From: Gammaproteobacteria bacterium | Lineage (GTDB): Bacteria > Pseudomonadota > Gammaproteobacteria > JAKDMP01 | NCBI GenBank assembly: GCA_030452225.1 | Contig: JAKDMP010000002.1 | Span: 1-44,651, forward strand | DNA: 44,651 bases | Reading direction: 5' to 3' | Shown here: positions 19,079-29,339 of the stretch, one piece after another | Layout: every line of letters begins with the position of its first letter | How positions within the stretch are numbered: position 1 is the first letter of the stretch | Position numbers and translations under genes: made by a program | Notes under the pieces: generated by a model | Seen by the model: the letters and a program-made list of their open reading frames with translations, nothing else | Database searches by the model: none | Told to the model about the DNA's origin: nothing

Positions 19079-19647
19079 TCCACTACCTCGTTCCAGGTCT
19101 CGGGCGTATTGCAGTCGGTGAGTTGCGTCGCTTCGCCGCGGTGCAGGGGAATCTCCTTCGCATCGAGCGCCTGTTGCAGGGCGCGCAACGAGCGTTGCCG
19201 CGGTTTGTCGGATCGCAGCAGGCGGTCGAGCACTTCGCGGCAGCGCGCGTCCAGCCGCAGGCGCAGGGGCAATACCTCGCCGGCAAAACGCAGGCAGGCG
19301 GCCCGCGGCTCTTCCACGCGCAGGCGATGGAGCAGCGCCGGCTGCAGACGTGGCATGTCAACCGGCACCACCAGCAGTTCGGTTTCATCCCGCAGCGCGG
19401 CGGCGACGCCGGCCAGACCTGCGAGAGGACCGGCCTGCGTTCGCAAGTCGTCGATGCCGCCGTAGCCGGGGCGGTACCCGCTGATCTGGACGTCGGCGAC
19501 GCCCGCATCCCGCAGCAGGGCGATCTGGTGTTCGATCAACGGTCTTCCGCGCCAGGCGAGCAGGGCCTTGTCGCGGCCCATGCGCCGGGATTGCCCACCG
19601 GCCAGCACCACCCCGATGCAGGGCAGGGCGCCGGGAGCCCTATCCAT
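19075..19647 (-). CDS. mobA: molybdenum cofactor guanylyltransferase MobA
   Basis: VVLAGGQSRRMGRDKALL...VVPVDMP are the MobA nucleotide-binding motifs. ATG 19647 overlaps the moaE 3' end by 8 nt. The ORF-track N-terminal extension was trimmed. Confidence 0.9.
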   Translation of the reverse strand: MDRAPGALPCIGVVLAGGQSRRMGRDKALLAWRGRPLIEHQIALLRDAGVADVQISGYRPGYGGIDDLRTQAGPLAGLAGVAAALRDETELLVVPVDMPRLQPALLHRLRVEEPRAACLRFAGEVLPLRLRLDARCREVLDRLLRSDKPRQRSLRALQQALDAKEIPLHRGEATQLTDCNTPETWNEVVE

Positions 19648-20140
19648 GATCGGTCCCGTGGAAGCCCGCGGCGGCGCGTTCGGCCTCGCGGTGTTCGTCG
19701 CAAAGCGAGCAGCCTTCGCTCCAGGCGCTGTCGCCATCGGCGTAGTGTTCCTGTTTCCAGATGGGGGCCTCGTGCTTGAGGGCCTCGATGGTCAAGCGGC
19801 AGGCGCGGAAGGCCTCGTCGCGGTGCGGGGTACCGGCGGCCACCACCACCGCGGGATCGCCGAGGCCGAGGTCGCCTTGCGCATGGGCAATCCAGAGTTT
19901 CAGCGGCGCGCCGACCTCGGCGAGCGTGCGTGCGCCGATTTCGCGGAAGGTCTTGAGGACCAGCGGCTCGAAAAGATCGTAGGTGATGCCGGTGACTTCG
20001 CGGTCCCGGTTGAATTCGCGTACGCGGCCGACGAAGTTGGCGATGCCTCCGAAGCGCGGGTCGGCCACGAACTCGAGCGCCGCCGCCACGTTCAGTTTGG
20101 CCTCGCTGCGGTCGACGATCTCGACGTGCAAGTTCTCCAT
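19640..20140 (-). CDS. moaE: molybdopterin synthase catalytic subunit MoaE
   Basis: GGIANFVGRVREFNRDREV..ITYD....HRDEAFRACRLTIEALKHEAPIWKQE is the MoaE signature. The start is 2 nt after the moaD stop. Confidence 0.9.
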   Translation of the reverse strand: MENLHVEIVDRSEAKLNVAAALEFVADPRFGGIANFVGRVREFNRDREVTGITYDLFEPLVLKTFREIGARTLAEVGAPLKLWIAHAQGDLGLGDPAVVVAAGTPHRDEAFRACRLTIEALKHEAPIWKQEHYADGDSAWSEGCSLCDEHREAERAAAGFHGTDHG

Positions 20141-20142
20141 CG

Positions 20143-20403
20143 TCAGCCCCCGCCCACCGGCGGCAGCACCGCCAGCTCGCCGTCTTCGGGCACGGGCTCG
20201 TGATCGTGCAGGATCGTCTCGCGGGTGCCGAAGGCCGAGCGCCGCAGCAGGTCCTCGCCGACGCCCGGCGCATGCTCGCGCACATGCGCGACGAGGCGTT
20301 CGCGCAGCTCGCCGATGCTGCAACCGGCCGGCACGTCCAACTCGATGCGGCCCGCGGGATCGGCCTCGCGCAACGCACCGTGAAGCAAAATCCGCGCCTT
20401 CAC
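20143..20403 (-). CDS. moaD: molybdopterin synthase sulfur-carrier subunit MoaD
   Basis: The 86-aa ThiS/MoaD fold protein ends in the obligatory Gly-Gly (...LPPVGGG*). The GTG start overlaps the moeA stop (GTGA). Confidence 0.9.
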   Translation of the reverse strand: MKARILLHGALREADPAGRIELDVPAGCSIGELRERLVAHVREHAPGVGEDLLRRSAFGTRETILHDHEPVPEDGELAVLPPVGGG

Positions 20404-21653
20404 GCCGGGCTCCCGCCAATCGCCGGGCTCTCGAGGTGGCCGAGGCCGTACACCTCCACGCAGCTACCCGCGGACAATTGCCCGGCCCCGATCGGCACCA
20501 CCACCCAGGCGTTGGCATTCGCGAGCGGGCGGATGCGGTAGGACTCCTGGCCCGGCAGCACCGTGACCGACAGGCGCCCGGCGCCGTCCACGTCCAGCCG
20601 CGATTTCAGGTGATAGCGCAGCGGCCGTTTGGCGCTCCAGCTCTCGGCCAACGGTATCCGCCAGGGCTCCTCGGGCGGCAGGCCCATCATGACCCGCAGG
20701 GCGGGCTCGACGAAAAAGCGCAGGCTCACGGCGGTCGCGATGGGGTTGCCCGGCAGCCCGAAGAAAAGCGTGCCGTCGGCGAGGCGGGCGACCAGCAACG
20801 GTTTCCCCGGCCGGATGGCCAGCTTGTGGAACAGCACCTCGGCCCCGAGTCGTTCCAGCGCCTGCGGCACGAAATCGTAGCGGCCCATGGAAACCGCCCC
20901 CGTGGACACCACCACGCGGGCACCGGCGCCGCGGGCGCGCTCGAAGGCGTCGAGGAAGAGCCGGCCCTCGTCGCCCAGGGTTTCGGCATGTACCAGCTCG
21001 GCCCCGGCGCGGGGCAGGCGTTCGGCCAGGAACGGCCCGTTGCTGTTGCGAATCTGGCCCGATTGGAGCGTTTGCGCGGGATCGTCGACCAGCTCGCGGC
21101 CGGTACACAGCACCGCCGCCTTCGGGCGCGGCGCCACGCGAACGCGGGGCACGCCCAGCGCCGTGAGGAGCATCAGGTGTTGCGGCGCCAGGACCGTTCC
21201 CGGCTCGATTACCTGCTCGCCCGCGGGCACGTCGGAACCGGCTTCGCGGATGTTCTCCCCGCGCGGCACGTCGGCGAGGATGCGGACGCGCGGCGGGCCG
21301 TCCAGCCGTTCGGCCTGTTCCACCGGGATCACCCGATCCAGGCCTTCGGGAAGGCGGGCGCCGGTCATGATTTCCCAGGCGCCGTTCGATGCCGTGCGTC
21401 GCTCGTCGCCGGCGGCCTGTTCGCCCTCGATCGGGTATTCGCTTCCGGCGGGCAAGGGATCGTTCCCGCCGGCCAGCGCAAAGCCGTCCATGGCCGAGTT
21501 GTGGAACGGCGGCAGGGTCGCCGGGCTGGTGACGGGAGTGGTGAGGACGCGGCCCATGGCCGCGCTCGATGGGACCTTCTCGTCGGGCAGCGCCGTGCAG
21601 GCATCGAGGATGCGCGCCAGCGCCTCGGCGGGGTCGAGCAACTGCCGGCTCAC
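20400..21653 (-). CDS. moeA: molybdopterin molybdotransferase MoeA
   Basis: PPFHNSAMDGFAL...VSTGAVSMGRYDF...GLPGNPIATAVS are MoeA/gephyrin-E motifs. The GTG at 21653 overlaps the upstream stop (GTGA). The 781-aa ORF-track frame was trimmed. Confidence 0.93.
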   Translation of the reverse strand: MSRQLLDPAEALARILDACTALPDEKVPSSAAMGRVLTTPVTSPATLPPFHNSAMDGFALAGGNDPLPAGSEYPIEGEQAAGDERRTASNGAWEIMTGARLPEGLDRVIPVEQAERLDGPPRVRILADVPRGENIREAGSDVPAGEQVIEPGTVLAPQHLMLLTALGVPRVRVAPRPKAAVLCTGRELVDDPAQTLQSGQIRNSNGPFLAERLPRAGAELVHAETLGDEGRLFLDAFERARGAGARVVVSTGAVSMGRYDFVPQALERLGAEVLFHKLAIRPGKPLLVARLADGTLFFGLPGNPIATAVSLRFFVEPALRVMMGLPPEEPWRIPLAESWSAKRPLRYHLKSRLDVDGAGRLSVTVLPGQESYRIRPLANANAWVVVPIGAGQLSAGSCVEVYGLGHLESPAIGGSPA

Positions 21654-22648
21654 CGATGTTTCCCACCGGCGACCATGGTCAGGGTGTGCGCGAGGATGGG
21701 CGCGAGAATATCCATGCCCTGTGCCACGGCCTTCGGGCTCCCTGGCAGGGAGATCACCAGCGTGCCGCCGACGAGTACCGCCTCGGCGCGGCTCAACCAG
21801 GCGAGCGGCGTGTGCTGGCTCGATTCGCTGCGGAACATCTCGCCGATGCCCCCGAGCTTCCGGTCCGCCACCGCCGCCAGTGCTTCGGGGGCGCGGTCGC
21901 GCGGGCCCGGGCCGGTGCCGCCGGTGCAGAGCACGAGTTGCATGCCATCGGCGGCCAGCTCGCGCAGCCGTTCGGCCAGCGGCCCGGGATCGTCCGGGCG
22001 CACTTCCGCCGGGCCGACCTTCGCCCCCAATGCCTGCAAGCGCTCCACGATCAGGGGCCCGGCCCGGTCTTCGTACTCGCCGCGGCTGACGCGGTCGCTC
22101 AGGGTGAATACGGCGGCGGGCACATCGTCGAGCCGGGCCGCCGCGCGCGGTCGGTAGCGTTCGCGTTCGGCTTCGCTCATCCCGCCGGGATGCAGCCACA
22201 GCCCCTTTTTCCCGCCTTCCTTGAAGAGCAGGCGCACACCCTCGATCGACAGAGCCGGCTCGACCGGCTTGGTGAGGTCGTAGAGGGTGAGGAGCGCCGC
22301 GTTGACGCCGGCGAGGGCTTCCATTTCCACGCCCGTGCGTGAGCGGGTGGCCACCTCGCAGTACACGCGGATCGTCCGGCGCTCCGGCACGGGCTCGCAG
22401 TGAACGTCGATGTGATCGATCGGCAGTGGATGGCACATCGGCATCAGTTGCGGGGCGTTCTTCGCGCCCTGCAGGCCGGTCACTTCGGCCATCATCATGG
22501 CGTCGCCCTTGGGCAGGCGCCGTTCGACGATGGCCTCGAAGGCGCTTCCGGCTAGCAGTTCTCCCGTCGCGACCGCCCGCCGGGCGGTGACGCGCTTGCG
22601 CCCGACGTCGGCCATGCGGAAGTGTTTGTGCTCGCCGGCTTTGTCCAC
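21650..22648 (-). CDS. moaC: bifunctional MoaC (cyclic pyranopterin monophosphate synthase) / MoaB-Mog-type MoCF domain fusion
   Basis: The N-terminal half has KGDAMMMAEVTGLQGAKNAPQLMPMCHPLPI...TGVEMEALAGVNAALLTLYD (MoaC). The C-terminal half has LSDRVSRGEYEDRAGP...LVLCTGGTGPGPRD...LPGSPKA (MoaB/MogA). Confidence 0.9.
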   Translation of the reverse strand: MDKAGEHKHFRMADVGRKRVTARRAVATGELLAGSAFEAIVERRLPKGDAMMMAEVTGLQGAKNAPQLMPMCHPLPIDHIDVHCEPVPERRTIRVYCEVATRSRTGVEMEALAGVNAALLTLYDLTKPVEPALSIEGVRLLFKEGGKKGLWLHPGGMSEAERERYRPRAAARLDDVPAAVFTLSDRVSRGEYEDRAGPLIVERLQALGAKVGPAEVRPDDPGPLAERLRELAADGMQLVLCTGGTGPGPRDRAPEALAAVADRKLGGIGEMFRSESSQHTPLAWLSRAEAVLVGGTLVISLPGSPKAVAQGMDILAPILAHTLTMVAGGKHR

Positions 22649-22651
22649 GGC

Positions 22652-23665
22652 TCAGCCCCCGATGTACGACATTTCGATTTTCCTGCGCCCGGCGGCCGCC
22701 GCTTCGCTGCGTAGTTCCGAGTAACGGTCGCGGCGCCCGTGCCACACGGCCGCGAGCCGCTCGGCGATGGTCTCGTCGGCGGCGCCTTCACGCAGCATGC
22801 CGCGGAGGTCGACGCCGCGGCTCGCGAAAAGGCAGGTGTAGAGGCTCCCCTCGGCGGACAGTCGCGCGCGCGTGCAATCGCCGCAGAAAGGCTTCGTGAT
22901 CGAGGCGATCATGCCGATTTCGCCGGCGCCGTCGCGGTAGCGCCAGCGCCGCGCCACCTCGCCGGGATAGTTGGGCGGGGCACGCTCGATGGGCCAGCGC
23001 GCGTCGATGCGTTCGAGGATCTCGTCGGCGGAAACCACTTCGTCCCGTTGCCAACCGTTGGCATTGCCCACGTCCATGTACTCAATGAAACGCAGGATGC
23101 GCCCGCTGCCGCGGAAATGATCCGCCATGGCCTCGATGGCCCGGTCGTTGGCACCGCGCCGCACCACCATGTTGACCTTGATCGGCCCGAGGCCCGCGGC
23201 GGCGGCGTGTTCGATCCCCGCCAGCACCTGTTCCACGGGAAAGCCTGCGCCGTTGATGGCCTGGAAGGTCGTATCGTCCAGCGCGTCGAGGCTGACCGTG
23301 ATGCGTCCGAGGCCGGCGTCATGCAGTCGTTCGGCCTTTTCGCGGGTGAGCAGCGAGCCGTTGGTCGTGAGGCCGATGTCACCGATGCCGGGGAGGGGCG
23401 CCAGTTTCGCGACCAGGCGTTCGAGGTCGCGGCGCACCAGCGGCTCGCCGCCCGTCAGCCGGATCTTGTGCACGCCCAGATCGGCGAAAAGGCGGGCGAG
23501 GCGCGCGATTTCATCGAAGTCCAGCAGGCTCGCACGCGGCAGGAAGGCGTGGTCGGCGCCGAACTGTTCGCGGGGCATGCAATAGCTGCAGCGGAAGTTG
23601 CATCGGTCGGTCACCGAAATCCGCAGGTCGCGAAGCGGCCGGCCGAGGGTGTCCAGCGTGCTCAT
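22652..23665 (-). CDS. moaA: GTP 3',8-cyclase MoaA (radical SAM)
   Basis: LRISVTDRCNFRCSYCMP is the radical-SAM cluster and the C-terminal FCGDCTRARLSAEG the second cluster. ATG 23665 puts the N-terminus at the usual distance from the CxxxCxxC motif. Confidence 0.95.
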   Translation of the reverse strand: MSTLDTLGRPLRDLRISVTDRCNFRCSYCMPREQFGADHAFLPRASLLDFDEIARLARLFADLGVHKIRLTGGEPLVRRDLERLVAKLAPLPGIGDIGLTTNGSLLTREKAERLHDAGLGRITVSLDALDDTTFQAINGAGFPVEQVLAGIEHAAAAGLGPIKVNMVVRRGANDRAIEAMADHFRGSGRILRFIEYMDVGNANGWQRDEVVSADEILERIDARWPIERAPPNYPGEVARRWRYRDGAGEIGMIASITKPFCGDCTRARLSAEGSLYTCLFASRGVDLRGMLREGAADETIAERLAAVWHGRRDRYSELRSEAAAAGRRKIEMSYIGG

Positions 23666-23778
23666 GGACACGCCGCGCCGGTGGTTGATGGATAAAGGCT
23701 GTTGGCAGCGCGCCAAAACGCCGTCGAAGATCGCAGGCAAGAATACCGGCAGCCGGGAAGGCCGGCCAGTCGGGGCAT
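23662..23778 (-). CDS. 38-codon upstream ORF (MPRLAGLPGCRYSCLRSSTAFWRAANSLYPSTTGAACP*) between the riboswitch SD and moaA; may be translated only for coupling
   Basis: The ATG at 23778 lies 7 nt after the riboswitch GGAAAGGAG. Its TGA overlaps the moaA ATG (ATGA). It is out of frame with moaA, and moaA has no SD of its own. Confidence 0.25.
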   Translation of the reverse strand: MPRLAGLPGCRYSCLRSSTAFWRAANSLYPSTTGAACP

Positions 23779-23783
23779 GTTCG

Positions 23784-23896
23784 TTCTCCTTTCCAAAGCC
23801 GGGAGGCGAACGCGTTTCCCCGTTCACCCTGGTGACTCAATGGCCACGGACACACAGCCATACCCTGGGGCGTAGGCACGGTGCCTCGGAGTTGTC
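23784..23896 (-). ncRNA. Moco (molybdenum cofactor) riboswitch in the moaA leader
   Basis: The minus-strand RNA reads ..CUCCGAGGCACCGUGCC...CACCAGGGUGAACGGGGAAACGCGUUCGCCUCCCGGCUUUGGAAAGGAG. The CACCAGGG-GAA-hairpin-UUCGCCUCCCG...UGGAAAGG arrangement parallels the E. coli moaA Moco motif as I remember it. The 5' CUCC can pair with the GGAG of the SD. Confidence 0.7.
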
Positions 23897-23931
23897 AGGG
23901 CAATCATAACAGCCTCGCTGCCATGCAGGAC

Positions 23932-23945
23932 TTGACCAGGCTCAA
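23932..23945 (-). promoter_or_regulatory. FNR/Anr-type box (minus strand TTGAGCCTGGTCAA) with class-II spacing to a TATGAT -10 (23908..23903); moaA promoter
   Basis: The TTGA-N6-TCAA core is intact. 23 nt separate it from the -10 hexamer. The predicted TSS is about 23896, just 5' of the riboswitch. Confidence 0.5.
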
Positions 23946-24028
23946 AGCCGGGTTGCTCTCGAAGGGACATGGGTGCAGGCGGATCAACCCGCCGGGAGCG
24001 TGCTGATACCGTCGGCCCGTCTTCGAGG

Positions 24029-25084
24029 TCAATGCATCCGCGAACCGCGCCGATACCCGGCCAAGGCGTGCAATTGGCCGACGAACATCAAGGCCCAGGC
24101 CGCCAGTCCCGCGGCAAACATCGCCCAGGTCCACAGGTCGAGGAAGTGGAAGCCCAGCGCCGCGGACATCTCGTGGGTGGCGACGGCATACATGCCCAGG
24201 GGAAACACGGCGCCCCAGAAAAGCGGCTCGAAGCGCAGCGGGTAGCGCTTGTACACATGGCGCCAGAAGCCGAGCACCAGCAACATGGGGATCCACCAGG
24301 TGCCGGTGGCCCAGTAGAAGATCGTGAAACCCTTGATGAAAGGCTCCAGCGCATCGAGTATCGTGGCATGTGCGACGTTGATGCTCAACAGCGCCCCCAC
24401 GAGGGTCGATATGGCCATCGCGCCCATGTTGATCCAGTACGGCGGCGACAAATCGTCGGGCCGCAGGACGAAAAAGGTGTAGCGGAAGAAGATGAGCGAC
24501 ATCATCCAGATGTAGAGCATGCCGCCCCACAGCCACATGGACAGGGCGATGAAGTTCAGGGGCAACTGGAATTCGTGCCCAACCTCGGTCGCCAGCAGGG
24601 CACTGAGCGCGGCGATGGCCTGCGTGGCCACGACGGCCAGCAACCAGCCACCGTTGATCCCGCGGGCAAGCGTCGGCTTGCTCTCCTTGACGGTCAGAAT
24701 GGCGAAGATGGAAAACGTCAACGCCAGCCACAGCAGGACGGCGAGTGCCCACAACGCGAGGGCGGCGGTCGCGTGGTCGAGCAGGAGCAGGCACTGGCTC
24801 CCGAGGATACCCGTCGCCGCCACGACGGTGAAAAAACCCGCGCCCTTGTCGTGGCTGCAAAAGTCGGCAACCACGCGTTGACGGTAACGCAGAAACCGGA
24901 TCACGTACAGGGTCCACAGCAGGACGAAAAAGACCGCATTGAGTGCGAACAGGGCTTGCGCCAATATCGGGAGGCCCAATCGCCAGGCGCCGATCGAGAC
25001 AATTCCCGTGGCCATGACCATGCTGAAGTAGGCCGGCGAAAGATGGGCGAGGGCGGAAGCTTGTGCGCGCGGCGGCGGCTGCAT
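24029..25084 (-). CDS. TehA/SLAC1 (tellurite-resistance/dicarboxylate transporter, TDT) family anion channel or transporter
   Basis: The 351-aa protein has about 10 TM helices. The N-terminal LSPAYFSMVMATGIVSIG matches the TehA PAGYFGIVLG motif. WINMGAMAIS and the FYWATGTWWIP blocks are typical of the family. Confidence 0.85.
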   Translation of the reverse strand: MQPPPRAQASALAHLSPAYFSMVMATGIVSIGAWRLGLPILAQALFALNAVFFVLLWTLYVIRFLRYRQRVVADFCSHDKGAGFFTVVAATGILGSQCLLLLDHATAALALWALAVLLWLALTFSIFAILTVKESKPTLARGINGGWLLAVVATQAIAALSALLATEVGHEFQLPLNFIALSMWLWGGMLYIWMMSLIFFRYTFFVLRPDDLSPPYWINMGAMAISTLVGALLSINVAHATILDALEPFIKGFTIFYWATGTWWIPMLLVLGFWRHVYKRYPLRFEPLFWGAVFPLGMYAVATHEMSAALGFHFLDLWTWAMFAAGLAAWALMFVGQLHALAGYRRGSRMH

Positions 25085-25562: not shown

Positions 25563-28500
25563 TCAGAAGGCGATCTGGTAGAGGATGTCGGCGCCGCTGA
25601 TGGTGCCGGATACGGCCCTCAGGGCCCAGTGGCGGGAGATCGTGTAATGGACGCGCAGCAGGTTGATCGGCTGGTACAGGCCGATGCCGTAGCTCACGTA
25701 CAGGCGCGGGGTGAGGTATTCGCCGAGAAACAGGGAAGTCTGATTCCTGTCCGTAGTGTAGGGGCTGGCGCTTTCGACCGTTACGGTGTCCACGCCGATG
25801 TACTCGCCGACCGATTCGGCCAGAAACGTGGCGCCGGCAAGGCCGAGTGCATTGGCGGCCTGGGCCTGAAGGCTGCTTTGGGTGCCGCTGTTTTGCCGTA
25901 CGCCGTGACCGAACAGCAGGTAGGCAAGGGCGTTCGATTCCGACATGGGCGGGTCGGAGTAGATATCCATGCGCGGGCGGCGCAAGCTGCCGGTTACATG
26001 CAAGCCGACGACGACCGTGCCGAGGTCGCGTTGCGCGCGCATGTTCACGGAGGGGTTGCCCACCCATCCGCCGCTGAACAAGAGTACGCCCTGGACGATT
26101 TTCAGCTTGATCCCGTATGCCTTGTATTGCCCCTCGAGTACCCTGATTTCGCCGGTGCCGGTGGCCAGCTCGTGCGGCTCCTGGATCAGGGTGAGCCGGC
26201 CACCGAGTCGCGCGTCCACTCCAAAGCCGCTGAAGTGTATTTTGTCTCCGAGACGCAGCGTGATGCGCGCCTGGACGGCGATCGGGCTTTTCGGGGCGGG
26301 TGTTTTTTTGCCGACTATGACCAGATCCTCGCTCGGCGCGATGGCATTGGCAAAGTCCGGCGGCTGGATGTCCGCGGAAGGAATCGCAATGACACCCTTC
26401 ACGCTCAGCCGCCGGTTCTTCCATCCGATGTCGAGTTCGGGGCTGACTACGAGGCGAGCCATGGGCATATTGGCAATGAGAAAGTGCTCGCCTTTCACCC
26501 GGGCATCGAGCGCCCATCTTCGGGCATCGCGCAGGAGGCTCCCGTGCAGGCTCAAATGGCCCTTTTTGCCGTCGTCCATGCTGCCGGACAGGCTGAGTCG
26601 CGTGCCCTCGCCGCGCAGGGTGAGCCGCGCGTTTTTGACGCGGGTTCCAAATCGGGGCACGCTGAAGCCGGCCCGAGACAGGGCGATGCGGCCGGAAAAG
26701 CGCGGCTGTTCGAGCGAACCCGATACGGAAAAATCCGCATCGAGCCGGCCGCTCAGCTTGTCGATGGCGGTGCTCAGCGCGTCCATTCGGGACAGGTTCG
26801 GCAGGTGCGCGGTGATGGCGAGCCGACCCGTGGGCATTTCATGCCTGCGCCAGGGGCTCTCGACGCGAATGTCGAGCATGCCGCCGAGGGACGGCAGGAC
26901 GCCCAGTCGCGCCTGGGCCGTGCCGCCGTCGATGCGGACTTCAAGCCCGGCTTCGTTGAACCCGAAGTTCCTGCTCTCGCCCTGGATGCGGCGCTCGATG
27001 CTGCCCGAGCCGGCGTGCAGCAGGGCCAGCACGCGAAGCCGGCCGTTGCCGCCCCGCGCATCGACATAGCCGTCGAGCTCACCGTGAACCTGCATGCGCT
27101 CGAGGAACGGATTGGCAAGGTCCAGCGGCAAGGCATGCAGCGTCAGGCCGATTTGCCAGCCCTGCTTGTCCGAGTTGCCGGCCAGGCACAGGCGGGACTG
27201 GTCGGAGCCTTGCCAACAGCTCCGGCCGAGCGTCAATTGCCTTTCGCCCAGCAAGATTTCGGCGGCGTCCTGCAATCGGAATGCGGGGGTGCCCGGCGAC
27301 TGGAATCTGCCCCGCTCCAGGTTGCCTCGCCAGGCGTTTTCGAGGAGCCTTCCGGAGCCGGCGAGATGCAGTTCGCCGCGCTCGCCTTGAAAATCCAGCC
27401 TGAACCGCTGGGCATCGGCGGGCCCGGACAGGCTGAATTCGAGATCGCCGAGCATCGAGGCGGCTTTTTGGATGCCCTTCAGCGCAAGGTCAATCGAGGC
27501 GACCGCTTTTTTGCCCGCCTTGAATGCAGCCTGTGCGTCGGCCTGTTTGATCCGGACGCTGCGCCAGTGCAGGGCTTCACCGCTGAGTTTGCCCTCGATG
27601 AGCGGGGCTTTGCGCGTGCCGGTGATCGTGCCTTGCGCGGTGAGGTGACCGCCGAGTCCGGCGGCGAACAGGCTCAACTCCGGCGCGCGCAGTTGCCAGG
27701 CGATATCCGGGTGGTCGCTCCAGCGCCCCTGCAGGGTCAGACGGTTGGAGCCGGCGGCCAATGCAAGGCGGTTCACGACCAGCCGCTGTTCGGTCCAATC
27801 CAGGCTCGCGTGCCCGGTGACGGTCTGGCCGTGGAGGCGGCCGGTCAAGCGCTCGAGTTCGATGCGTGCGCCCAGGGGTTCGAGAGCGCCCTCGGCGGTC
27901 AGGACGAACGCGACGCTTTGCGGGAGTTGAGCGGCCATCCGGATGGCTTCGAGATCGAGGCCGTGACTTTCAAGCCGGAGTCGGAATGCTTGTCGATCTG
28001 CGAGCGACAGCTTGCCCGCGGCGAGGATTCTGCCGTCCAGCCAGCGCCCGGCGAGACCCGTGATCGTCGCCACCTGCGAGTTGCCGTGGGCCTTGAGCAG
28101 CCAGCGCCCCGCAGACAGTTCGCCGACCTGGATGCGGCCGAGCGCATGGACCGCCCAATCACGGAGCGTGCCGTCGAGGCTCGCGCCGCCTTCGGGGGCA
28201 AGCAGCTTCGGCGTTTTCGCGCCGGGCGGCCAGCGCAAGTCCTGCCAGGCCACCTCGAGGTGCGCGACGTGCGGCGCGTCCAGCGCGATTTGCCCGTGCA
28301 GGGTGAGTCGGCCCCTTGGAGCGGTGTGGCTCTCGGGCGCAGGCGCGGCCGTTTTGATGCCAAGCAGCTCGAGATTCAGATGTGCAATGCGCAGTTTCCG
28401 CTTCTGCAAGCCGGCCTGAAGATCGAAGCCGATCTGGGCGGATTGCTCTCCATGGACGGCGAGGCTGCCCCGGGCATTCAGGTTTTTTGCATTGCCGTGA

Positions 28501-29339
28501 AAATGAATGTCCGCCGTTGCCGCGAGTGCGGGCCAATCGGCGCGAAGCTTTGCCAGGTCGAGTCCCGCCAGCCAAAGCTTGCCCTGCACGCTTGGCTGAT
28601 CGAGCGGCTGGTCGATGTGTGTCTCGAGGCTTGCGGTGAACGGCGCACTTACCTTCTGCACGAGCGCAACGGATCCGCGCAGGTTGCCATCTATGCGGAG
28701 GCGGCCGGTCAGGGTCGGGAAGTCGGGCCAATGAACTTGTTCGCGAAGGCGCGCGGCGATTTTCCATTCGCCGTGCGGTTCGAGGCGAAGCTCGCCGGCG
28801 AGCTCGAAGCGGGATTGTCGGATTTCCAGGTCGGCCAGTTTGATGCGGTCCTCGCTTGCATCGAGCGAGAAACCGACGTGAACCAGTTGCCGTTGCTGTT
28901 GCGGCATGGAAATTTTGATTGCGTTCAGTTGCGCCGCGTCCACGATCCAGTGCCAGGACAGCTCGACTTGTTCGGGGAGCCTGAATGCGGCGTCCGATGG
29001 TTCATGCCGATCCGGCTTTACGGCAACGGAGATGTGATCCGCGGTCAATCGCGTGACCTTGATTTTGCCTGCCGCCAGCGCCGTGGGGCTCCAGTCGAGT
29101 TTGGCCTGCGCTACGGTGATGACAGCACCATCGAGATCGAGTTGCAGGTTTTTTATCTGGATCGGCCCCGCCAGCGTCCCCCGGACGCTTCCGATGCGCA
29201 GCGCGCCGTCGGAATAGTCTTCCACCAGTCCGACCGCCCAGCTCAAACCGGCCTGGGTCTGGAACAGCACGGCGATGCCCGTGACGATGACGACGACCAC
29301 GGCGCCGAGCGCAATGGCGATGCGATAGCGCCACTTCAC
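25563..29339 (-). CDS. tamB: translocation and assembly module inner-membrane protein TamB
   Basis: The 1258-aa protein has an N-terminal anchor helix, a long repetitive beta-rich body and a DUF490-type C-terminus (...LFLGEYLTPRLYVSYGIGLYQPINLLRVHYTISRHWALRA). It overlaps tamA by 4 nt. Confidence 0.9.
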   Translation of the reverse strand: MKWRYRIAIALGAVVVVIVTGIAVLFQTQAGLSWAVGLVEDYSDGALRIGSVRGTLAGPIQIKNLQLDLDGAVITVAQAKLDWSPTALAAGKIKVTRLTADHISVAVKPDRHEPSDAAFRLPEQVELSWHWIVDAAQLNAIKISMPQQQRQLVHVGFSLDASEDRIKLADLEIRQSRFELAGELRLEPHGEWKIAARLREQVHWPDFPTLTGRLRIDGNLRGSVALVQKVSAPFTASLETHIDQPLDQPSVQGKLWLAGLDLAKLRADWPALAATADIHFHGNAKNLNARGSLAVHGEQSAQIGFDLQAGLQKRKLRIAHLNLELLGIKTAAPAPESHTAPRGRLTLHGQIALDAPHVAHLEVAWQDLRWPPGAKTPKLLAPEGGASLDGTLRDWAVHALGRIQVGELSAGRWLLKAHGNSQVATITGLAGRWLDGRILAAGKLSLADRQAFRLRLESHGLDLEAIRMAAQLPQSVAFVLTAEGALEPLGARIELERLTGRLHGQTVTGHASLDWTEQRLVVNRLALAAGSNRLTLQGRWSDHPDIAWQLRAPELSLFAAGLGGHLTAQGTITGTRKAPLIEGKLSGEALHWRSVRIKQADAQAAFKAGKKAVASIDLALKGIQKAASMLGDLEFSLSGPADAQRFRLDFQGERGELHLAGSGRLLENAWRGNLERGRFQSPGTPAFRLQDAAEILLGERQLTLGRSCWQGSDQSRLCLAGNSDKQGWQIGLTLHALPLDLANPFLERMQVHGELDGYVDARGGNGRLRVLALLHAGSGSIERRIQGESRNFGFNEAGLEVRIDGGTAQARLGVLPSLGGMLDIRVESPWRRHEMPTGRLAITAHLPNLSRMDALSTAIDKLSGRLDADFSVSGSLEQPRFSGRIALSRAGFSVPRFGTRVKNARLTLRGEGTRLSLSGSMDDGKKGHLSLHGSLLRDARRWALDARVKGEHFLIANMPMARLVVSPELDIGWKNRRLSVKGVIAIPSADIQPPDFANAIAPSEDLVIVGKKTPAPKSPIAVQARITLRLGDKIHFSGFGVDARLGGRLTLIQEPHELATGTGEIRVLEGQYKAYGIKLKIVQGVLLFSGGWVGNPSVNMRAQRDLGTVVVGLHVTGSLRRPRMDIYSDPPMSESNALAYLLFGHGVRQNSGTQSSLQAQAANALGLAGATFLAESVGEYIGVDTVTVESASPYTTDRNQTSLFLGEYLTPRLYVSYGIGLYQPINLLRVHYTISRHWALRAVSGTISGADILYQIAF

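Follow-up and report, generated by a model that had tools for sequence, protein, structure and literature searches.

A Moco riboswitch leader with a short upstream open reading frame that may relay control to moaA

The moaA leader and its riboswitch

Contig JAKDMP010000002.1 of the Gammaproteobacteria assembly GCA_030452225.1 carries an operon for making molybdenum cofactor (Moco), headed by moaA and preceded by a Moco riboswitch. We analysed positions 1 to 44,651 of this contig (the window, 44.6 kb), starting from a first-pass annotation made from the sequence alone, which had proposed that the Shine-Dalgarno (SD) sequence sequestered by the riboswitch serves a 38-codon upstream open reading frame (uORF), and that this uORF ends on the moaA start codon. 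The features of the locus are as follows, those of the riboswitch, the uORF and the operon all lying on the minus strand.

23770–23901 (−): Moco riboswitch aptamer, RF01055 (cmscan), comprising P1–P5, P3 included, and a P4 that ends in a GAAA tetraloop
23888–23891 (−): CUCC, the 5′ strand of P1 and anti-SD partner (Rfam alignment structure line)
23786–23789 (−): GGAG SD sequence, the 3′ strand of P1, serving the uORF (sequence and Rfam alignment)
23662–23778 (−): 38-codon uORF, from ATG 23778 to TGA 23664–23662 (reading frame, SD spacing)
23662–23665 (−): ATGA stop-start overlap of the uORF and moaA with −4 spacing, ccATGAgc (TGA 23664–23662, ATG 23665–23663)
22652–23665 (−): moaA (GTP 3′,8-cyclase, 337 aa), without its own SD (Pfam Radical_SAM and Mob_synth_C; homologues)
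23739–23767 (−): weak hairpin (23767–23748, −10.3 kcal/mol) followed by GUAUUCUU (23746–23739), judged non-functional as a terminator
21650–22648 (−): gene for a fusion of MoaC and MoCF_biosynth, MoaB/Mog-type (Pfam MoaC and MoCF_biosynth)
20400–21653 (−): moeA, with a GTGA overlap with the upstream gene (Pfam MoeA_N, MoCF_biosynth and MoeA_C)
20143–20403 (−): moaD (ThiS family), with a GTGA overlap with moeA (Pfam)
19640–20140 (−): moaE (Pfam MoaE)
24029–25084: SLAC1/TehA-family gene, upstream of the riboswitch (Pfam)

The resemblance of the leader to the Moco RNA motif, noted in the annotation, was borne out by a covariance search. Rfam cmscan matched RF01055, the family named in the annotation, at 23901..23770 (−) with 80.0 bits and an E-value of 6.3e-18 over model positions 1–135 of 135, the gathering score of the family being 36 bits; no other Rfam family was matched across the whole window. 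The architecture comprises P1–P5, with GGAAAC in P4, CCUAC...UAUGG in P2 and CCUCCC...UUGGAAAGGAG (Rfam alignment), and shows the elements of the five-helix Moco motif as it has been defined (PMC2408646), namely the conserved junction nucleotides, a P2 receptor bulge and a P4 capped by a GNRA (GAAA) tetraloop. P3 marks Moco-type aptamers, and the group that lacks it is putatively of the tungsten cofactor (Tuco) type (PMC2408646); here P3 is present as GUGGC-CAUUGA-GUCAC in the Rfam alignment, so the aptamer is Moco-type by this criterion. It also lies upstream of Moco biosynthesis genes, as judged from Pfam matches and as is asked of Moco motif riboswitches. By its sequence and alignment, the aptamer is an ordinary RF01055 member. 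The predicted pairing of a 5′ CUCC with the GGAG corresponds to P1 in the Rfam alignment (23891–23888 with 23789–23786). The span first assigned to the whole feature, 23662–23896, was right at the end formed by the uORF and the overlap and too short at the other, where the aptamer reaches 23901.

The SD sequestered in P1 belongs to the uORF, as the annotation had read it: the ATG at 23778–23776 opens 7 nt past the GGAG, in a frame other than that of moaA, and the 38-codon frame (MPRLAGLPGCRYSCLRSSTAFWRAANSLYPSTTGAACP, MPRLAG...GAACP) closes in the ATGA shared with moaA. The same −4 spacing recurs inside the operon, as GTGA, at the junctions of the MoaC-fusion gene with moeA (21650–21653) and of moeA with moaD (20400–20403). 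The claim that moaA lacks an SD agrees with the duplex energies: over the 20 nt preceding its ATG, the strongest anti-SD pairing reaches −2.7 kcal/mol, versus −8.7 kcal/mol for the uORF.

Placing the moaA start at ATG 23665, as the annotation did, proved consistent with the protein. From this codon the Cys cluster falls at C22/C26/C29, and the N-terminus aligns with those of relatives both with and without the riboswitch. The gene call for the window MoaA (P0001) is 339 aa long, implying a start at GTG 23671, two codons upstream of ATG 23665; sequence conservation favours ATG 23665. Gene calls for two relatives (L159:1201 and L160:1201) are 308 aa long and miss the GTG starts. None of 20 database MoaA proteins contained riboswitch-derived N-terminal peptides (GFGKE and similar).

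Upstream, the frame of moaA runs on into the aptamer without a stop, giving an ORF of 391 aa (window 23827), which would suit an assembly or sequencing frameshift, moaA truly starting at ATG 23778 and no uORF being present. The sequence comes from a food metagenome, and contig X1 from an independent run (word depth about 9) matches 23520–24050 with no differences and no indels, indicating that the two-frame layout is not an assembly slip. The layout also recurs in seven other assemblies, and the MoaA N-terminus at ATG 23665 agrees with relatives; a frameshift is next to impossible.

Upstream of the aptamer, a TAnnnT box lies 9–14 nt before the conserved CGACAA that opens it, reading TATGAT in the window (23903–23908, −) and TAGGCT, TAGGGT, TAGAAT or TATCAT at the same place in the relatives L081–L160. 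This box may be a −10 element, which would place the transcript start at the 5′ edge of the aptamer. No −35 element was found next to the box, and a promoter scan of the window region returned no full sigma-70 match. An ORF of 1258 aa (window 25563–29339, −) adjoins the region.

The uORF layout in related loci

Relatives were sought in three sets. A scan of species-representative genomes with MoaA gave the best 80 loci (L001–L080), with at most 75% identity, and none of these had a Moco riboswitch within 3 kb (Rfam), so they could not be used to assess conservation of the uORF. Closer MoaA proteins (76–82% identity) came from a large protein search, and their contigs were then fetched. RF01055 was present in seven distinct fetched loci, namely L081, L082, L083 (identical in sequence to L084), L085, L087, L159 and L160, of which L083 belongs to a Rhodanobacteraceae metagenome-assembled genome (MAG) and L087 to an Oleiagrimonas MAG; no Moco riboswitch was found in the fetched loci L086, L157, L158, L161 and L162. 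Finally, metagenomes scanned with a degenerate pattern that represents the aptamer's 3′ half yielded 69 loci, a single one of which, L137 (79.5 bits), joined the group with the layout of the window. The comparison set thus consisted of nine distinct riboswitch-bearing loci, window included. RF01055 scored 66–88 bits in the relatives, and CTCCGAGG, at the 5′ strand of P1, was invariant in all nine loci.

The riboswitch is patchy within the family. The moaA loci without it (L001–L080 and the five fetched loci named above), which include Rhodanobacter thiooxydans, have a moaA at most 77% identical to that of the window, and often differ in operon order.

An SD-proximal uORF ending on the main start was found in eight of the nine riboswitch-bearing loci, the main gene being moaA in seven and moeA in one, so that the frame and stop-start overlap described in the annotation are largely conserved. 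The first ATG sits 5–8 nt past the GGAG in all eight, and the −4 overlap is kept in every case, as ATGA in six loci and GTGA in two. The eight leaders are listed below, the spacer being the DNA that separates the main start from the ATG of the uORF.

Window: uORF of 38 codons, ATGA, moaA, spacer 110 nt
L081: uORF of 38 codons, ATGA, moaA, spacer 110 nt
L083: uORF of 35 codons, ATGA, moaA, spacer 101 nt
L085: uORF of 25 codons, ATGA, moaA, spacer 71 nt
L087: uORF of 37 codons, ATGA, moaA, spacer 107 nt
L159: uORF of 38 codons, GTGA, moaA, spacer 110 nt
L160: uORF of 26 codons, GTGA, moaA, spacer 74 nt
L137 (177–1639): uORF of 21 codons, ATGA, moeA, spacer 59 nt

The spacers of these eight loci range from 59 to 110 nt and fall into six distinct lengths, all of which are 2 mod 3. 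The chance of a single frame across six length classes is about (1/3)^5 = 0.004, a figure that leaves out the required A at +4 and the absence of earlier stops. The spacer sequence itself is hardly conserved, with a mean pairwise identity of 0.52 versus 0.48 ± 0.04 after shuffling; elsewhere, identity is 0.73 for the aptamers and 0.77 for the first 300 nt of moaA. Likewise, the uORF peptides (21–38 codons) align over their first few residues at most, and GC content by codon position is flat in the uORFs (GC1/2/3 of 0.66/0.70/0.68) as compared with the main genes (0.69/0.49/0.82). Because spacer, length and peptide drift while frame and overlap stay, selection appears to act solely on the frame and the stop position, as expected of a uORF that delivers ribosomes. 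In L137 the uORF is coupled to moeA, indicating that the putative relay module is not bound to one gene.

A functional uORF product, either a small protein or a leader peptide with a regulatory role in ribosome stalling or amino-acid sensing, would agree with the cysteines and arginines found in several of the peptides. These peptides, however, are unalignable and variable in length, lack a coding signature in their GC content, gave no match in a Pfam search, and contain neither a codon run nor a conserved stalling motif, making this explanation highly improbable. Leader-peptide attenuation of the trpL type was also considered and rejected, given the unrelated peptides, the lack of codon runs and the lack of a terminator.

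The main start codons may, in addition, be hidden by structure. The predicted cost of unfolding positions −12 to +13 was 15–26 kcal/mol in the eight loci, exceeding the mean of coding-region control windows in all of them, which lends modest support to an occluded main start. The anti-SD duplex before the main start of the relatives ranges from −3.9 to −7.0 kcal/mol, each weaker than that of its own uORF SD.

Several observations weigh against a relay through the uORF. The structure excess at the main start is modest, 0.4–2.8 standard deviations per locus. Some relatives have G-rich, moderately SD-like sequence ahead of the main start, with duplex energies as low as −7.0 kcal/mol, and independent initiation is possible there. 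Shuffled spacers stay open in 66–88% of trials at 66–75% GC, and for this reason we did not count the openness of the frame as evidence. The close relative L082 does without a uORF, its moaA ATG following straight after the SD. No RNA run containing this sequence was found. Lastly, the eight loci share ancestry, so that the truly independent tests are fewer than eight.

The arrangement of L082, which looks ancestral, would also be expected if the uORF were a neutral leftover, created when an insertion parted the SD from moaA, the resulting ORF being tolerated and moaA initiating independently. The insertion could have been an element similar to mycobacterial interspersed repetitive units (MIRUs), which are known to land on start codons and thereby give rise to ORFs coupled at −4 (PMC12548453), and the lack of a coding signature in the uORF points the same way. 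Nevertheless, neither the 44.6-kb window nor the fetched loci contained a second copy of any spacer, and a neutral spacer should lose its frame, which is kept here across six length classes at near-saturated divergence. Moreover, a MIRU-type origin would still operate by coupling. We consider a neutral leftover very improbable.

The MoaA of L082 (971–1180) begins with MMSVPAD..., and its codons 5–7 (GCC GAT) resemble codons 5–6 of several uORFs. This hints that an ancestral 5′ end of moaA could have given rise to that of the uORF, or that the derivation ran the other way, although the alignment statistics are inconsistent: in local alignments of spacers with the 5′ end of moaA, z ranged from −0.4 to 3.5, and we discarded duplication of the moaA 5′ end as the origin of the uORF.

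A possible relay and its alternatives

We think it fairly probable, from the comparison of leaders, that the window contains a translational OFF Moco riboswitch whose output is relayed to moaA through the short uORF. Without Moco, P1 would be open, and ribosomes loading at the GGAG/AUG would translate the uORF. On reaching the UGA, they would reinitiate on the overlapping AUG, or unfold the structure hiding the SD-less moaA start, or both, and the downstream operon would be translated via the −4 overlaps that follow (MoaC-fusion/moeA and moeA/moaD). Binding of Moco would close P1 over the uORF's SD and start, and moaA would receive no ribosomes because the uORF remains untranslated with its SD sequestered in P1. 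The uORF peptide itself would have no function; all that would count is that the uORF is translated and where its stop lies. Relay by termination-reinitiation had been suggested in the annotation; it is supported by the conserved layout, the coupling itself being what we infer.

The ribosome-free leader and moaA 5′ end would probably also be exposed to Rho, silencing the whole operon. An analogy makes this addition to the relay likely: in E. coli, 3′ ends of moaA depend on Rho, and a rho mutant expresses the gene more strongly (PMC7815308). The same data would suit a different mechanism, in which uORF translation shields the leader from Rho and moaA initiates alone, with the riboswitch acting on transcription of the operon. 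In its favour are also the C-rich spacers of the window (C 0.39/G 0.27) and L081 (C 0.43/G 0.32), as well as the weak SD-like stretches before moaA in some relatives. However, the C>G bias is absent from the six other spacers and, being confined to the window and L081, this Rho utilization (rut)-like bias is not a conserved feature. Furthermore, shielding from Rho needs no exact stop-on-start, yet the −4 overlap is present in all eight loci, and the window moaA has no SD. Polarity with independent initiation of moaA is thus unlikely; polarity as such is compatible with the reinitiation relay and probably acts alongside it.

Other Moco riboswitch leaders were examined in the 69 metagenome loci, sorted by the element that follows the SD:

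27 loci: long ORF straight after the SD
22 loci: terminator-like hairpin and U run
1 locus: uORF with −4 overlap (L137)
7 loci: one family, conserved at the nucleotide level, whose short ORF shares 8 nt with moaA
8 loci: unclassified
4 loci: too little downstream DNA

With only 1 of 69 loci in its class, the putative relay is rare among Moco riboswitches, and in this sample its layout is confined to one narrow gammaproteobacterial clade. We lean, a little less firmly than for the relay itself, towards the view that a Rhodanobacteraceae-like clade swapped the direct output, with the moaA SD in P1, for a sequence-free landing-pad uORF of 21–38 codons, retained for nothing but its frame and −4 overlap, that feeds a moaA or moeA lacking an SD.

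The family with the 8-nt overlap (L093, L111, L115, L118, L135, L152 and L155) has an ORF of 32–33 codons that opens 6 nt past the SD, and its overlap reads ATGAATAG or ATGAATGA. Leaders L096, L098, L122, L124, L145 and L154 are also listed with this second family, over the first 110 nt past the GGAG. In close relatives the start ATG is replaced by ACG, and nucleotide conservation is strong over the whole spacer; for these two reasons, this leader looks like an RNA expression platform and not a conserved uORF.

Terminators, present in about a third of the sampled Moco riboswitch loci (22/69) and known to be used by some Moco riboswitches (PMC2408646), bear on the second possibility raised in the annotation, an attenuator in the spacer. 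Here the riboswitch would control a terminator made of the hairpin at 23767–23748 and UAUUCUU, and the uORF would be accidental. The hairpin does exist in the window, followed by GUAUUCUU; its role as a terminator did not hold up. A terminator scan reports nothing in 23500–24200, the U tract is interrupted, and the element is not conserved: four of the eight spacers lack any 8-nt window with at least five T, and in the other four no U-rich window follows a good hairpin at a position that is conserved. An attenuator would also leave the conserved frame and overlap unexplained, and is scarcely credible.

Comparison with known systems

The usual classes of expression platform either sequester the SD of the regulated gene or control a terminator. 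A third route is a gated uORF that delivers ribosomes to the main gene by a stop-start overlap, for which there is experimental proof in one mycobacterial B12 switch. Its apparent use in a second riboswitch class and another phylum suggests a recurrent solution and not a mycobacterial oddity. If true, relays of riboswitch, uORF and reinitiation would amount to a general type of expression platform, and the leaders compared here would provide natural comparative evidence that translation as such is all that is under selection. In practical terms, gene finders mis-start such genes, giving 339-, 308- and 391-aa versions of a 337-aa MoaA, and target prediction that expects the main start a few nt from P1 would mis-assign the platform in such leaders. 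The natural variants (21–38 codons, ATGA or GTGA, and one relative without a uORF) are a ready panel for studying the rules of coupling. A full-text literature search returned no paper tying a Moco riboswitch to a uORF.

The closest relative by aptamer is the Moco riboswitch of the E. coli moaABCDE operon (Regulski et al. 2008, PMC2408646), which has the same P1–P5 architecture with P3 and a GAAA tetraloop, likewise has the SD in the 3′ strand of P1, and also stands in a Moco biosynthesis context; OFF logic is expected here as well. In E. coli, however, no more than 10 nt separate the moaA AUG from the SD and P1 (PMC2408646), whereas in the window the AUG at that place opens the uORF, and moaA starts 113 nt further on and has no SD. 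The direct arrangement of E. coli is also found in L082 and in 27 of the 69 metagenome loci. Terminator-type Moco riboswitches share the aptamer but, as in L100, L101, L102, L119 and L121, have a GC-rich hairpin and a U run right after P1, none of which is conserved here.

Coupling by overlapping uORFs is known outside riboswitches. In S. meliloti, ATGA-overlapping uORFs act by translational coupling (PMC13285730), and a review gives NTGA as the commonest coupling spacing and reports that short ORFs can deliver ribosomes (PMC12548453). The uORFs of the Moco leaders have the same −4 NTGA spacing and a probable role in ribosome delivery, but appear to be gated by an aptamer, while those in the two publications are not described as riboswitch-controlled.

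The nearest counterpart in mechanism is the B12 riboswitch of M. tuberculosis ppe2 (Kipkorir et al. 2024, PMC11260477), which also masks the SD of a uORF (uPPE2) that overlaps the main gene by AUGA. That gene has no obvious SD (PMC11260477), as is the case for the window moaA; a main gene without an effective SD is found in the window and, in part, in the relatives. PPE2 expression is lost when uPPE2 is untranslated or its stop is moved, and relies mainly on termination-reinitiation (PMC11260477). As would be expected of a relay of the ppe2/uPPE2 type, the arrangement in the Moco leaders is kept beyond neutral drift, all spacers being 2 mod 3 across six length classes while their identity is about that of shuffled sequence. 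The two systems differ in riboswitch class (cobalamin versus Moco), phylum and target gene; uPPE2 is partially conserved (PMC11260477), whereas the peptide of the Moco-leader uORF is not; and the ppe2 relay is proven experimentally, whereas that of the Moco leaders is proposed here from sequence comparison. What appears to be new is therefore the combination, a relay-type platform on a Moco aptamer, the aptamer being known and the relay having been demonstrated for one other riboswitch class.

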